IMG/VR virus record: IMGVR_UViG_2563366807_000009 | Length of the DNA stretch: 19,447 bases | From: a virus | Lineage: Duplodnaviria > Heunggongvirae > Uroviricota > Caudoviricetes | Strand: one strand, 5' to 3' | The notes under the pieces: generated by a model | Seen by the model: only the letters and a program-made list of their open reading frames with translations | What the model was told of the DNA's origin: nothing | The model's database searches: none | Translations under genes and position numbers: made by a program | Part shown: positions 5,226 to 13,104 of the stretch, in pieces | Layout: each line of letters opens with the position of its first letter | Numbering within the stretch: position 1 is the stretch's first letter

Positions 5226-5516
5226 TTAGTGATTCAGACCGTTGCCGCGTCCGTCGAGAAAAACTTCCACGAGCAAGTCACGGGTATAAGTGCGCTCAAT
5301 GCCGCGATGCAGATAAAGTCGTCCGCGTAAATTAGCTGATGCAGTCCAGGTACCATCTTTGCGTTTGACCAGCATTCCTGGCATGACCGCACCGCGATTA
5401 ACGGTCTGCGTTCCGTAATGTTGATGAACCATAAAAACTCCTGCCCGTAAGCTGGGCTGCTGAACATATAAAGACTTCTGCGCGTATTCAGGCGGTGGAT
5501 GGCCGCCGGTTGTCAT
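5226..5516 (-). CDS. hypothetical early-left protein in the kil/cIII position
   Basis: 96-aa ORF preceded by GAGG, first gene downstream of the putative PL. No arginine-rich N-terminus, so not N- or Nun-like. No family recognised. Confidence 0.45.
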   Translation of the reverse strand: MTTGGHPPPEYAQKSLYVQQPSLRAGVFMVHQHYGTQTVNRGAVMPGMLVKRKDGTWTASANLRGRLYLHRGIERTYTRDLLVEVFLDGRGNGLNH

Positions 5517-5707: not shown

Positions 5708-5790
5708 TTATTTAAAACTATAGTTGTTTTATCGTCAACAACAAAAGTTGTTTTATTGGTTGTTTTAGATATAACTGGTTGTATTTAGGA
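5708..5790 (-). promoter_or_regulatory. OL/PL-like operator-promoter region
   Basis: The 17-mer AAAACTATAGTTGTTTT (5714-5730) is the reverse complement, with one mismatch, of the OR 17-mer at 8144-8160. Further GTTGTTTT-type half-sites lie at about 5746-5754, 5758-5767 and 5777-5785. Minus-strand TTGACG at 5738..5733 is a candidate -35. Confidence 0.5.
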
Positions 5791-5879: not shown

Positions 5880-5906
5880 AAAAGAAAACCCGGCACGGTG
5901 GCCGGG
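5880..5906 (-). terminator. Rho-independent terminator ending the cI-cassette operon
   Basis: Perfect 6-bp GC stem CCCGGC/GCCGGG (5889-5894 and 5901-5906), followed on the minus strand by TTTTCTTTT, 8 nt after the stop of the 310-aa ORF. Confidence 0.65.
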
Positions 5907-5914
5907 TAGCATCA

Positions 5915-6847
5915 CTATTCGATTTTTTTAACCATGTAGTTACGTCGTGATGTTCCTAATCTTTCATTGTGAATCTCAGAAACGCTTACTACGAGCGATA
6001 TTCGTTCACCAACTTTATATTTACTTTGAATTTCTCCTAACATATCAATCGGATAAGAAGCCTTTATTTTTCCAAGCTCGCTTGCAATCTCCAATTTCCC
6101 GTACATGGATAAAATAGCAAGTTCGCCTGATATATGCTCATCCGGTAGCTGAATGACCTTCGTTAAAGCTAAGCGAGCATTCAGTTTTTTTATATCTTCT
6201 GAAGAAATTGACACTTGTCTGGTACCATCACTTAAAGGTCCAATCCAAGTAAGATCAAAGTTAAGACTATATTTTTCGCACTCATTTATGATGTTTTTTA
6301 GGTTAGCTGTTGATTGCGAACCAATTTCGGCAATTTTAGCCGTGAATGTTTCTTCATCAATGGATGAGAGTAGTGCAAAAATCTCCTTAACAGCATGACT
6401 GGATACTGTTTCGATGAGCTCGCAAGAACCAGTAGAAAAAGTAACACCTAACTTCGTCGAACCTGGACGCAAGTCTGCCAATCTCATGTCTAATGATTTT
6501 TTAACATCAATCGGCACACGACTAGAATCTTTCCCAGATCCAAGTCGGTAAACTGCTTTCTGTACAAGGGATGCGAGATTACCTGAAATTACAGATAGAA
6601 TATCTAACGGAATAGACCCGAAATCGACCAAAACACCTTTTAATCTCAACTCCATGAAATCACGTAAAGGATGTTGGTTATCGATTGCACGTTGTCTCTC
6701 TCGGAGATCGCTCAGATGGGAGTCAAGTGATCTAAATATAATGTCATCAGCAAATGATCTCCCCTTATTTTGAGCAAGCAGATCCACATCGCGTTGAATG
6801 AACGCAATTCGCTCCTTGAGGGAGTTGAATGTTTTTTCTTCGCTCAT
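5915..6847 (-). CDS. hypothetical 310-aa protein, second gene of the rex-slot cassette; no family recognised
   Basis: Long ORF whose ATG (6847..6845) overlaps the upstream gene's TGA as ATGA. Visibly AT-rich compared with flanking lambda-like genes. Immediately followed by a terminator. No transmembrane segment or catalytic motif that I can assign. Confidence 0.75.
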   Translation of the reverse strand: MSEEKTFNSLKERIAFIQRDVDLLAQNKGRSFADDIIFRSLDSHLSDLRERQRAIDNQHPLRDFMELRLKGVLVDFGSIPLDILSVISGNLASLVQKAVYRLGSGKDSSRVPIDVKKSLDMRLADLRPGSTKLGVTFSTGSCELIETVSSHAVKEIFALLSSIDEETFTAKIAEIGSQSTANLKNIINECEKYSLNFDLTWIGPLSDGTRQVSISSEDIKKLNARLALTKVIQLPDEHISGELAILSMYGKLEIASELGKIKASYPIDMLGEIQSKYKVGERISLVVSVSEIHNERLGTSRRNYMVKKIE

Positions 6848-7317
6848 AACATTACCCTCACGAGGCCTTTAGGATTCTCCTTCCGATCAAAACCAAACCA
6901 CCCTCTCCAGTAACTTCGCCTTTCACTATAATCGATTTCTGGATGATTTTCAGGCAGCAAAAGAACGTCAATGCTGTAGTTTTCTTTAATAAAATCTCTA
7001 TTTAACAATGAGCTGACCAATGGCATCAGCGTGTTTGGCAAAGAGTTTAGGGCCAAATAATCGACGACCACGAGTATATCTATGTCATCAGGTTCAGGTT
7101 TCTCTGTAGTGAATGAACCATCGATCCACACTTCAGAGAAACATAGACACTGCTGATTAACAAGTTTAAATTGCTCAATAAGCTGTATAAAATTACAGTA
7201 TAGCATACTTCTTCTAACGGATTTTGGGAAGGTGTCGACACAAAGAGACTTGATGCCATCACTATCCATATCATGAAATCCTGCTGTAAGAAGAGGTGGG
7301 AAGCTAGGCTTTTCCAT
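6844..7317 (-). CDS. minimal nucleotidyltransferase-like protein (Pol-beta superfamily signature), first gene of the rex-slot cassette
   Basis: 157-aa ORF 81 bp downstream of the cI stop, AAGGA before the ATG. Contains GSFTTEKPEPDDIDILVVV, i.e. G-S, 9 residues, D-I-D, hydrophobic strand, with a later acidic strand YSIDVLLL. This is the hG[GS]-x9-13-Dh[DE]h pattern of MNT-type nucleotidyltransferases. Confidence 0.75.
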   Translation of the reverse strand: MEKPSFPPLLTAGFHDMDSDGIKSLCVDTFPKSVRRSMLYCNFIQLIEQFKLVNQQCLCFSEVWIDGSFTTEKPEPDDIDILVVVDYLALNSLPNTLMPLVSSLLNRDFIKENYSIDVLLLPENHPEIDYSERRSYWRGWFGFDRKENPKGLVRVML

Positions 7318-7398: not shown

Positions 7399-8088
7399 TT
7401 AACCATGCTTCCTGTACGTCTGCGGCATGCTCCCAATAACCTTACCGAAGATGAACACCCGGTTCATCTCGTCTTTCTCGATCGGGTCCCACGGTGAGTA
7501 GCTTTTGTTATCAGAGATGACCAGCAGCTTATCCTTCATCATTTGCAGGCGCTTTACATGGGCTGTGTCGTCGTACAGAAACGCATAGATACCATCACCG
7601 TCGAAAGATTTAACTGTGATATCAACGAACAGCAGATCACCTGGTTCGATCGTTCCTGACATGCTGTCACCACGCACGTTAATGATGCGGATATTTTCCG
7701 CCTTCCTACCATCGAACATGTGACGAGCATCGTCAAACGAGTACTCAACCGAGCGTAGAACTTCTACAAACTCACGGTTGATGACTCCCGGCCCAGCACT
7801 GACTTCTATATCAAGAACGTCAATCTTGAAGTATTTGGAATGGCTGACAGTTGATTGTATTGGTTGCACTGTACTGTCTGACATATTTCCAACGCCAGAA
7901 GATAACCATTCTGCGCGCACACCCAAAGCGTTCGCGATCTCCACGATTTTAGTTGTTTGATTAGCTTTCCCTGTTTCGATTTTCTGAATAGCAGCCTGGC
8001 TAACCCCGACCAAATCCCCAAGCGCCTTTTGTGTAAGGCCTCGCGCTAATCTGGCTTCTTTAAGTCTTTCTGAGAGTGTTGTTTTCAT
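7399..8088 (-). CDS. cI: CI-like prophage repressor (XRE HTH plus S24 LexA-like autopeptidase domain)
   Basis: Start taken at ATG 8088 (MKTTLSERLKEARLARGLTQKALGDLVGVSQAAIQKIETGK... is the HTH). C-terminal VRGDSMSGTIEPGDLLFVD and AHVKRL supply the Ser/Lys dyad. Not lambda immunity by sequence. The six-frame ORF extends 22 codons upstream into the operator. Confidence 0.85.
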   Translation of the reverse strand: MKTTLSERLKEARLARGLTQKALGDLVGVSQAAIQKIETGKANQTTKIVEIANALGVRAEWLSSGVGNMSDSTVQPIQSTVSHSKYFKIDVLDIEVSAGPGVINREFVEVLRSVEYSFDDARHMFDGRKAENIRIINVRGDSMSGTIEPGDLLFVDITVKSFDGDGIYAFLYDDTAHVKRLQMMKDKLLVISDNKSYSPWDPIEKDEMNRVFIFGKVIGSMPQTYRKHG

Positions 8089-8093
8089 AGTCC

Positions 8094-8166
8094 AAATGTA
8101 CAACCAAGGTTTTATTCCATCAAACGAAAATGGTTGTTGACTAAAAACAACCATAGTTTTAATCTT
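8094..8166. promoter_or_regulatory. OR-like tripartite operator with divergent PRM/PR
   Basis: Three related 17-bp sites spaced about 24-27 bp apart: 8097-8113 (TGTACAACCAAGGTTTT), 8124-8140 (weaker, inverted) and 8144-8160 (AAAACAACCATAGTTTT). TTGACT at 8137-8142 is a -35 for rightward PR. Site 1 lies 9 bp from the cI ATG, suggesting a near-leaderless cI mRNA. Confidence 0.6.
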
Positions 8167-10746: not shown

Positions 10747-11045
10747 CGGGCAAAGAGGCAATTATTCATTACCTGGGGACGCATAAGAGCTTCTGTGCGC
10801 AGGACGTTGCTGCGGTAACAGGCGCAACAGTAACCAGTATAAATCAGGCTGCGGCTAAAATGGCACGGGCAGGAATCTTGGTCGTTGATGGTAAGGTCTG
10901 GCGAACGGTGTATTACCGGTTCGCTACCAGGGAAGAACGGGAAGGAAAGGTGAGCACGAATCTGATTTTCAAGGAGTGTCGCCAGAGTGCCGCGATGAAA
11001 CGAGTGTTGGCAGTGTATGGAGATATGAACTTAAACTTGCTGTGA
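10743..11045 (+). CDS. ren: Ren
   Basis: MTGKEAIIHYLGTHKSFCAQDVAAVTGATVTSINQAAAKMARAGILVVDGKVWRTVYYRFATREEREGK... matches lambda Ren as recalled. The last few residues diverge, marking a mosaic junction. Confidence 0.88.
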   Translation: MTGKEAIIHYLGTHKSFCAQDVAAVTGATVTSINQAAAKMARAGILVVDGKVWRTVYYRFATREEREGKVSTNLIFKECRQSAAMKRVLAVYGDMNLNLL

Positions 11046-11293
11046 CGGTTTTCATCGGTAACACACCATGTAATCTAGCAGTCAGCTTAGAAATAGGAGC
11101 GGCAGTTAAAGATTTTTCAGTTAGTAGAAAATTACTGTTATTGCAGGGATCTAATCACCGGAGAGTCGTTCCATTTGTCTTATGATTACCTGAAGTCCGT
11201 TAGTTCGTTGGTAATCACCGTTTTTGTTAGAGAAGTAAGCATCGCTGACAAAATATTCTCAACGATGCCTGCTTTATTGCTACTACAAATTAA

Positions 11294-12796
11294 TTAAATT
11301 GCATCTGCAAACTCTGGGGTTTTTCGCTCAGGTATAATTGATGAGTTGCTGTTGTCACTTTTTTTATTTTCATGATTACGAATAGCCAATGACTCATTAA
11401 AGTCTTTTGCGACTGCTGTCTCAATAAATTCAATTTCTGAATCAGAGTGTTTTTTAACAGCTTCTTTGATCTCATCCAGAGTAACATAGAAAAACTCTTT
11501 TCTACGATTTACAAGATTGACTCTCTTTTTATCGAAGACATCATGTAGTTTTTTTTCTAATGATGGAGCGTCCTCCGAATAAATCATGGCATGTACATCA
11601 AAAATAAAAGGAACAGATGCATCACCGAGCTCATTTACACGGTCTTGCGGATCAAGACGTCGTGTCATGCCTATTTTATAAACATTCTCCCCAAAAGAAC
11701 CTATGTTCGAAATAATATAAACATGACCTTGTTTGGTTTGTTGTGCCATGGATAATGCTCTTTGATGCTTTGATTCAGCCTGCGACAAACTCTGTTCTAG
11801 TTCGGCAATGCGATTTTCGAGGCGCTGCTTCATGTCACCAGTAACTTTTTCCATTTCCTTTCTTGCAGCTTCAATTGCTTTTTTATAACGGCGCTCTTCT
11901 GCCTCTGCGTCTTGCATGGCCTTTTCTATTTCTCGTTGTGCACGCTCCTCCTCTCTCATTTGTGCCCTTATTTCTGCCTGTTCTTCTTTTTCTTTCTGTT
12001 TTTGCTCACGATATTCATGGGTAAGCCACAATTCCTCAAGTTTTTTATTGAGGTATTTAGTGTTTATATATATGTGATTTTGCTCGTTTAGTTTATTTAT
12101 GGCCTCAAATGCCTTTGTGATGCGTTCTTCCATTTTAGTGATGTTTTTCCACGTGCAATTGCTAATTGCAGCATCACATTCATTATTAAATGCTCTAGTA
12201 GTTAGCCTGATATTTCTGTCTGTCATTTTTTTACCCTCTGCTCGAGAGCCTTCAACAGTCCATTGGGTTGTACAATATACTGCGCCAGAGTGGGTTTTAT
12301 CCCGCAGCATTAATTTCTGTTCATCCCTGATGGATTTTATTTTGTTTTTAAATTGCTCTGAATCTTCAAAATTAAAATGAGGTTCGTAAAATCCTAGTTC
12401 GGCTAGCTCAACATCTTCTGAATAAATAGAAATTTGCCTTACTAGTTTATCATATATTTCTTTCTTCTCTTTATAAGTTCTTCTTAGCTCTTGGATTTGT
12501 TTATTGATACCATCCATTTTTTCAATGGTGTTTGTTAGTTCATTATTGGCATTTTCTTTTACTTTTAGGGATTCTTCTTTTATTATGGAGCATTCTTGCT
12601 CTGTTTTCTCAATAAGCTTCTTACATTCTTCTTCTACATTAAAATAATCTGCAAAGCGAGATTTGTATTCTTCATTTTTTTGATTGCTATCACTTAATTC
12701 TAATTGTATTTTTTTGATGCGTTTGATTGCAGCTATATAAAGAACAAGAACAACCAATAAAAATATGATTGCAAGTAATAGAGGAGTTTGAGTCAT
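11294..12796 (-). CDS. membrane-anchored coiled-coil protein with C-terminal GIY-YIG/T5orf172-like nuclease domain; candidate anti-phage defence protein
   Basis: 500 aa, strongly AT-rich, convergent with ren. N-terminal hydrophobic helix (LLLAIIFLLVVLVLYIAAI), long E/K/R-rich predicted coiled coils, C-terminal GHVYIISNIGSFGENVYKIGMTRRLDPQDRVNELG...E, i.e. GIY...YIG...R...E spacing. AAGGAA Shine-Dalgarno before the ATG. Confidence 0.85.
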   Translation of the reverse strand: MTQTPLLLAIIFLLVVLVLYIAAIKRIKKIQLELSDSNQKNEEYKSRFADYFNVEEECKKLIEKTEQECSIIKEESLKVKENANNELTNTIEKMDGINKQIQELRRTYKEKKEIYDKLVRQISIYSEDVELAELGFYEPHFNFEDSEQFKNKIKSIRDEQKLMLRDKTHSGAVYCTTQWTVEGSRAEGKKMTDRNIRLTTRAFNNECDAAISNCTWKNITKMEERITKAFEAINKLNEQNHIYINTKYLNKKLEELWLTHEYREQKQKEKEEQAEIRAQMREEERAQREIEKAMQDAEAEERRYKKAIEAARKEMEKVTGDMKQRLENRIAELEQSLSQAESKHQRALSMAQQTKQGHVYIISNIGSFGENVYKIGMTRRLDPQDRVNELGDASVPFIFDVHAMIYSEDAPSLEKKLHDVFDKKRVNLVNRRKEFFYVTLDEIKEAVKKHSDSEIEFIETAVAKDFNESLAIRNHENKKSDNSNSSIIPERKTPEFADAI

Positions 12797-13104
12797 TCGT
12801 GCTATTCCTTACGGACAATTTAAGACGTTTTGTATTAAATCCTGTTCAATGTGTATGCGGGTGATTGCTACCGCTTACAATCTTCATAATTATCAGTTAG
12901 ATAGACTCGCTAGTAAATAATTTCATTTTTTGCAATATTCTTATTGAATATTTCAATTTATGAAATGAACTCTTTATCCTTTCAAGGTGAAAGGTTTCTT
13001 CTTCGGAAATATTTGCTCTCGTGTGACGTATAAAGACCTTTGATTTTCAAAAATCAGTAGGGAATAATATAGTTACTGTCGGCCTGAACACCCGGTGGTG
13101 GGGT

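Follow-up and report, generated by a model that had tools for sequence, protein, structure and literature searches.

Downstream of the cI-type repressor gene in the DNA stretch studied here (19,447 nucleotides of a Caudoviricetes virus, IMG/VR record IMGVR_UViG_2563366807_000009; in the following, the window), two overlapping genes on the minus strand, here called A and B, encode a small nucleotidyltransferase (NTase) and a partner protein of 310 amino acids (aa). According to their profile matches, the locus is a member of PDC-M63, i.e., of a catalogued, uncharacterised computational candidate. The two genes form a strictly conserved, obligate pairing. We tentatively favour reading A-B as a conflict module that is expressed in lysogens and acts as a complex, preferably under a control like that of HepT-MntA, and consider this quite possible rather than probable. 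An earlier note, made from the sequence alone, had raised the idea that B carries a HEPN RNase signature; B is not a HEPN RNase. The genes and their junction are as follows.

5915 to 6847, minus strand: gene B, 310-aa protein, matching PADLOC PDC-M63B and phrog_6603, no Pfam family
6844 to 7317, minus strand: gene A, 157-aa DUF6932 minimal NTase, PDC-M63A (Pfam, PADLOC)
6844 to 6847, minus strand: ATGA overlap (4 nt) of the A stop and the B start

Pairing, families and conservation of the two genes

In 19/19 fetched loci as well as in the window, a B-family gene is directly preceded by a DUF6932 gene in the same orientation, and the junction in all 19 related loci is either a 4-nt overlap or a direct abutment. 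In the window, translational coupling is implied since the ATGA overlaps the A stop and the B start. A related-genome search with a narrow B alignment found genomes of 6 species. Distant pairs occur in Pseudoalteromonas, Bermanella and Psychroserpens (Bacteroidota), such that the pairing ranges from Enterobacterales to Bacteroidota; here, the distant downstream proteins still match the B profile (hhalign E 1e-66 and 5e-48) at just 21-23% identity.

The surroundings of the pair support a cassette of the defence or toxin-antitoxin type. It directly follows the repressor gene in PhiR30_1 (97% DNA identity to the window), Escherichia phage mEpX1, Erwinia phage vB_EhrS_59 and a metagenomic prophage; a literature search on the accessions of the PhiR phages found nothing. 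In several Enterobacterales genomes, an open reading frame (ORF) resembling a helix-turn-helix repressor precedes the pair. Outside of prophages, it is found directly after a type I restriction-modification (RM) operon (one locus), as a plain insertion between housekeeping genes (one locus) and, in Psychroserpens (L016, 1511-3112), in front of a Lit-type Peptidase_U49 gene and the gene of a DUF6933 protein. The adjacent Pfam numbers of DUF6932 and DUF6933 may reflect a definition from the same neighbourhood. Within E. coli, the cassette is present in 98/5426 complete genomes, always chromosomal and with at least 99% identity.

One further locus (L019, 3510-5327) holds a divergent pair of a 189-aa DUF6932 protein and a 415-aa B-like protein (profile E 5e-16), which directly follows a type ISP RM enzyme. 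The 415-aa variant has about 100 extra residues, which might hold an added domain.

Gene A is predicted to encode an active minimal NTase of the pol-beta type, since it carries the complete hG[GS]...DxD...D signature. The motif DGS...DID covers residues 66-80 (window 7078-7122); in an alignment of 34 relatives, the most distant at 34% identity, D66-G67-S68 as well as D78 and D80 never vary, and D117 hardly does. In Pfam, A matches DUF6932 (E 4e-26) and, weakly, Polbeta and DNA_pol_B_palm. Among the PADLOC models, PDC-M63A is matched over residues 1-156 of 157 (E 7.4e-43), and it is the only one, i.e., no model of the cyclic-oligonucleotide-based anti-phage signalling system (CBASS), of AbiE or of another known system matches. 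A profile search of the PDB found no solved relative, and a literature search on DUF6932 found nothing. In the GenBank record of PhiR30_1 (L001, PV340558.1, 4346-4771), the NTase is annotated with 141 aa, starting from an internal Met. Judged by conservation, the 157-aa form is the correct one, because the N-terminal FPPLL-x-GFHD segment is conserved and G13 is invariant in 34 homologues.

For gene B, the ORF list confirms the 310-aa frame of the earlier note with its ATG start, and a Shine-Dalgarno sequence (GAGGG) is found 9 nt before this ATG. The conservation of B is that of a genuine, strongly constrained gene product: 69 homologues with 44-99% identity are nearly all exactly 309-310 aa long and practically free of indels. 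The family comprises 274 members at E<=0.001 in a profile search of 1.84 billion representatives. The 150 relatives listed are nearly all 300-330 aa long, and there are no domain fusions among the matches listed.

That B has no assignable family, as the earlier note put it, holds for characterised families. It does not hold for uncharacterised ones, as six PDC-M63B models of PADLOC match B (best E 4e-42, residues 25-309 of 310) as well as phrog_6603 (E 5e-177); PDC-M63B and PHROG 6603 are both uncharacterised families, and they are all that the profile searches, which the note had proposed as a check, returned with significance. Pfam gave no family at E<=1 for B and nothing significant for 107 of its relatives, NCBIfam gave nothing significant, and the same is true for PDB sequence and profile searches (using alignments of 28 and 107 sequences). 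Matches to SAVED (E 0.57) and LPXTG (E 0.008) were treated as noise. The note was right that B shows neither a transmembrane segment nor a P-loop or nuclease motif. That is, no membrane segment is evident because the top 19-aa hydrophobic window scores only 1.54 (Kyte-Doolittle), and both Walker A and known nuclease features are absent.

Family-wide conservation of B was assessed in an alignment of 107 relatives, in addition to which a close set of 28 relatives with at least 44% identity was examined. Across the 107 relatives, S130 (codon 6458-6460) is the sole invariant residue; it sits in a Gly-Ser-Thr loop. An acidic residue at position 63, R68, D/N120, R122, D/N142 and S/T147 are conserved in 85-96% of the relatives, and the conserved polar positions of B comprise D63 (E in most relatives), E66, R68, D120, R122 and S130. 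Near-invariant structural positions are G77, P80, L81, G105, G129, G176, W201 and W212. The B studied here departs from the family with C142 (D in 92/107) and T147 (S in 88/107), and its enterobacterial subclade carries C142 and V212 in place of D142 and W212. In sum, the pattern looks more like a binding pocket or a modification site than like a classical catalytic centre.

The slot downstream of cI

The order cI, A, B, terminator places the pair within the immunity region. The respective features of the window are:

7399 to 8154, minus strand: cI-type repressor gene (HTH_3 and Peptidase_S24), first gene of the operon
5888 to 5907, minus strand: strong intrinsic terminator, 7-bp stem (6 G-C pairs) followed by a T-run, starting 8 nt past the B stop
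5723 to 5742: operator-like palindrome GTTGTT-N8-AACAAC, PL side, overlapping a promoter-like TTGACG...TATAGT
8133 to 8151: operator-like palindrome GTTGTT-N7-AACAAC, PR/PRM side, between cI and cro

The two palindromes flank the cI-A-B block and are the only GTTGTT-N7/8-AACAAC sites in the whole window (0.01 expected by chance). Divergent from cI, we find a YdaS/Cro-like gene, a YdaT/cII-like gene and the O and P replication genes, while genes for Gam, RecT/Bet and a YqaJ exonuclease are located on the other side of the block. The immunity region of phage lambda consists of cI-rexA-rexB between OR and OL. The A-B pair occupies the lambda rexAB slot, i.e., it follows cI inside the immunity region and has a terminator at its end. 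The earlier note correctly saw B as the partner of a small NTase in a repressor operon (A being the DUF6932 protein and cI the first gene). Its statement that such a protein is unexplained by standard lambdoid gene content goes too far, given the rexA-rexB slot and the cassettes that related phages swap there.

Given this lambda-like arrangement, A-B would be co-transcribed with cI in lysogens. The spacer between cI and A (80 nt) is free of terminator-like sites. When scanned for promoter consensus sites, the 3' end of A gave two promoter-like matches; as the total count of such sites equals the shuffle expectation, we do not claim an internal promoter for B. The longest cI ORF (251 aa) begins within the OR-side palindrome GTTGTTGACTAAAAACAAC, and the PhiR30_1 record gives a cI of 242 aa. 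The true start is probably an internal ATG near 8088 (MKTTLSERL...), because the palindrome at 8133-8151 overlaps the start of the longest ORF. The first 22 codons of the longest ORF probably correspond to operator/promoter DNA and are not translated.

Comparison with four sister phages, namely PhiR5_1 (L020), PhiR47_2 (L021), PhiR34_1 (L022) and Perceval (L023), shows flanks near-identical to the window around varying content. Observed in the same slot are a HipA_2 kinase with a DUF3037 protein (matching PDC-M66), a 357-aa protein with an ASCH protein (annotated GevT/GevA, matching PDC-M11) and a 340-aa protein with a membrane protein, the latter pair without family. In PhiR34_1, the slot is empty. 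As near-identical flanks hold different cargo or nothing, we consider the slot an exchange point for two-gene accessory cassettes. The empty slot of the closely related PhiR34_1 also implies that A-B is dispensable for the phage. A literature search on GevT/HipD in a lambdoid context found nothing.

Two further genes of the window are worth reporting. Between PL and gam, a 96-aa ORF (5226-5516, minus strand) has no Pfam family; its counterpart is annotated as Kil in related phage records, and this annotation is inconsistent since the lengths of the Kil counterparts differ (68-139 aa). A 500-aa protein with DUF4041 and T5orf172/MUG113 (11294-12796, minus strand) matches PADLOC PD-Lambda-1 over its full length (E 1.9e-198), a defence gene of E. 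coli that has been validated by experiment (Vassallo 2022). It lies downstream of O/P/ren-type genes in a low-GC stretch (29-41% GC, 11001-13000). Based on this match, the prophage has a second accessory gene, of a validated defence type, in another slot.

Predicted structure of B and the RAIDNQH motif

All structure-based statements on B refer to one AlphaFold model of the full-length protein, with a mean predicted local distance difference test (pLDDT) of 80 and a predicted template modelling score of 0.71. We place moderate confidence in it, because the other four of the five models scored 60-68. Structure prediction had been named in the earlier note as a check; what it yielded is a soluble protein of three modelled parts, of which the last can be assigned to a known fold and the central one has no convincing fold match in the PDB.

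6680 to 6820, minus strand: B residues 10-56, N-terminal antiparallel helical hairpin, coiled-coil-like (model)
6164 to 6664, minus strand: B residues 62-228, central alpha/beta domain with conserved polar positions (model and conservation)
5918 to 6163, minus strand: B residues 229-310, C-terminal beta-barrel of the oligonucleotide/oligosaccharide-binding (OB) fold

The hairpin is modelled with helices at residues 10-25 and 32-56. The C-terminal barrel is predicted with a pLDDT of about 90 and has five strands, the third and fourth being linked by a helix. Its OB fold is of the type seen in SSB, RuvA domain I and anticodon-binding domains, with a sequence identity of 5-16% to the matches.

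For B as a whole, Foldseek against BFVD (predicted viral structures) returned a phage protein of 370 aa with DUF6575 (E 5e-14, 255 columns) and, at E 4.5e-7, a protein of Leptospira phage LE1, where the template modelling (TM) scores to DUF6575-type matches are low (0.38-0.44). On the sequence level, DUF6575 had no Pfam match in 107 members of the B family. Weak PADLOC matches link residues 62-148 to three PDC-M32A models (E 0.005-0.01) and residues 7-101 to one PDC-M02B model (E 0.009). PMC9519451 names DUF6575 as a domain found in E. coli defence systems that were validated by experiment; which of these systems holds it is not evident from the supplement of Vassallo et al. We treat the DUF6575 connection as a lead, not a result.

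The earlier note had pointed to an R-x5-H spacing that superficially fits the Rx4-6H signature of HEPN RNases, while cautioning that it may be coincidental. The motif is present (RAIDNQH, B residues 53-59, window 6671-6691), and the caution was justified: at least one Rx4-6H arises in 61% of shuffled B sequences. A second instance in B itself, R39...H44 (residues 39-44), is kept in 19/107 relatives. The signature reading of RAIDNQH fails, as neither R53 nor H59 is conserved in the family. Among the 28 close relatives, position 53 is variable (R 18, L 5, I 3, K 1, V 1). H59-P60-L61 is invariant in the same set, and H59 is fixed in the enterobacterial subclade only; across the 107 relatives, column 59 holds K/E/A/S and column 60 mostly R. 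Any Rx4-6H within the aligned region is found in just 12/107 relatives.

A HEPN-type RNase toxin acting via R53/H59 and neutralised by the NTase would further agree with the gene order, since the HepT-MntA pairs of type VII toxin-antitoxin systems consist of a small NTase gene upstream of a HEPN partner. In the model, however, RAIDNQH closes the second of the two hairpin helices as its final turn and is followed by a loop with pLDDT <50; a four-helix HEPN bundle is not predicted. Pfam gave no significant HEPN family for B or its 107 relatives, and the fold searches with B recovered no HEPN structure. A HEPN_AbiU2 match (E 0.005) in 1/107 relatives is at noise level. Given conservation, chance expectation and model context, we reject B as a HEPN RNase; the conservation data effectively refute this explanation, to which we assign next to no probability. 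Mutants of R53/H59 are thus not worth the effort, and S130, the DxD motif of the NTase and the OB domain are better experimental handles.

Explanations for the pair and comparison with known systems

Under the conflict-module reading introduced above, A and B would work as one complex in lysogens and provide superinfection exclusion, abortive infection or a toxin-antitoxin-like function. B would supply binding or sensing of single-stranded nucleic acid via its OB fold, and A nucleotidyl transfer. In the preferred version, A would nucleotidylylate B, with the invariant S130 in a flexible loop as candidate acceptor, such that B is kept inactive until infection upsets the balance. In a closely competing version, B would present a nucleic acid, the 3' end of which A would tail. 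We favour the type VII-like version because the size of A, the gene order and the overlap mirror MntA-HepT. Apart from domain content and genomic context, every step of these mechanisms is inferred. The reading as a whole is supported by the PDC-M63A/B matches, the intact motif of A, the obligate pairing, the prophage position and the slot swapping, and also by the RM and Lit-type peptidase U49 neighbours, the conserved polar positions of B, its invariant S130 and the abundance of the cassette in E. coli.

Several points weigh against it. The contact between A and B, nucleic-acid binding by B and the modification of B are steps that we infer, and OB folds mediate protein binding as well. Searches of B for a recognised effector domain (Pfam, PADLOC, hydrophobicity) found none. 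The B model is of moderate confidence, with the region of the S130 loop as its weakest part (pLDDT 53-64), and the pocket of B may differ in the enterobacterial subclade because of its exchanges D142 to C and W212 to V. A literature search on anti-phage systems that combine an NTase with an OB fold found nothing. The sole published test of PDC-M63 that we found is a deletion of PDC-M63AB in E. coli NILS69, which left the infectivity of 10 virulent dsDNA phages unchanged; its authors point out that the phage panel was narrow (bioRxiv 10.1101/2024.12.20.629700).

Among the other explanations, A itself could be the toxin. Like MenT or AbiEii, it would nucleotidylylate tRNA or another RNA, with B as antitoxin or as a specificity or sensor subunit whose OB fold binds RNA or releases A on infection. 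The complete catalytic motif of A fits this idea, as do the modelled resemblance of the B OB fold to tRNA anticodon-binding and ssDNA-binding domains and the fact that the cI-proximal gene in the slot of sister phages is annotated as a toxin (HipA, GevT). Yet A, with its 157 aa, belongs to DUF6932 and not to AbiEii/DUF1814 and is without an extra nucleic-acid-binding domain, and the antitoxins of AbiE/MenAT are encoded upstream and carry a winged helix-turn-helix (wHTH), which B does not. We regard this explanation as unlikely, though with a real chance of being correct. A signal-gated effector as in Hailong or CBASS is clearly more doubtful and receives a small probability from us. Here, A would make, constitutively or when induced, a nucleotide or oligonucleotide product, and its binding to the OB fold or the central pocket of B would switch the activity of B. 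An OB fold could plausibly receive an oligonucleotide and B has a conserved polar pocket, but neither a membrane domain nor any other known effector domain is seen in B, while A falls far short of CD-NTases in size and matches PDC-M63A rather than any PADLOC model of CBASS or another known system, and the SAVED match was not significant (E 0.57). A precedent is the two-gene system Hailong, where an oligodeoxyadenylate made by the NTase HalB holds the effector HalA closed (PMC13434031).

The pair could also serve the biology of the phage itself, i.e., modulate the lysis-lysogeny decision, as proposed for RexA, or act as an SSB-like accessory of recombination or replication. This would suit its location inside the immunity region and beside the red/gam recombination genes, the SSB-like OB fold predicted for B and the lack of a defence phenotype in the NILS69 deletion (bioRxiv 10.1101/2024.12.20.629700). 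The pair is, however, also found in Bacteroidota and, outside of prophages, next to RM systems and to a Lit-type peptidase, is dispensable given the empty slot of PhiR34_1, and is interchangeable with toxin-antitoxin-like cassettes. We give this explanation a slim chance only. A bolder form of the conflict-module reading is quite unlikely as a whole. It holds that B and other candidate defence proteins (PDC-M32A, PDC-M02B, DUF6575 proteins) have a new fold in common, that of the central domain of B, that the DUF6932-B pair represents a new mechanistic class of prophage immunity and that A nucleotidylylates the invariant serine of B, a soluble OB-fold effector binding ssDNA or RNA, or tails a nucleic acid that B presents. 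If true, a type VII-like control logic would act on an effector that is neither HEPN nor enzymatic in appearance and that senses intermediates of phage replication.

Compared with known systems, the closest correspondence is to PDC-M63 of PADLOC, whose models cover A (E 7e-43) and B (E 4e-42) in full length, the two genes being adjacent and ordered as expected. With HepT-MntA, the pair shares the minimal NTase with GS...DxD that is encoded 5' of, and overlapping with, its partner as well as the format of a compact two-gene mobile module. It differs in that B is not a HEPN protein and has 310 aa with a predicted OB fold, and in that A belongs to DUF6932 and not to the MntA families. AbiE and MenAT are likewise two-gene NTase conflict modules, some with abortive-infection activity, whereas A has about half the size of their NTases and no AbiEii/DUF1814 match, the gene order is reversed and B is without an AbiEi-type wHTH.

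Lambda rexA-rexB is alike in its slot after cI in the immunity region, with a terminator before PL/OL, and in being a two-gene cassette. It is unlike in content: A and B match PDC models only (in PADLOC, which does not compare them with RexA/RexB directly), and a membrane segment as in RexB is seen in neither of the two proteins. Hailong also combines, in two genes, an NTase with a potential oligonucleotide-binding protein (PMC13434031), but HalA is a DNA-gated membrane channel, while B appears soluble and without channel features, and no sequence relationship was detected. The proteins of DUF6575, PDC-M32A and PDC-M02B resemble B by structural match (Foldseek) or by weak PADLOC matches; those of the DUF6575 type differ in their length of 370-390 aa, in TM-scores of 0.38-0.44 and in showing no match at the Pfam level.

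Since PDC-M63 is an existing catalogue entry and the one published test came out negative, expectations should be moderate. What makes the pair worth pursuing is its pairing across bacterial phyla and its repeated landing beside restriction systems and in the rexAB slot, the one prophage slot that would be expressed in every lysogen. If active, it could account for what is expressed from a prophage repressor operon in about 2% of complete E. coli genomes, and it would represent a new type of effector for NTase-based immunity. In known two-gene cassettes with a minimal NTase (type VII toxin-antitoxin systems), the partner through which they act is a HEPN RNase; in A-B, such an enzyme is tied to a different, uncharacterised partner. 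A-B is best described as a putative NTase-based two-gene conflict module with an uncharacterised OB-fold partner.

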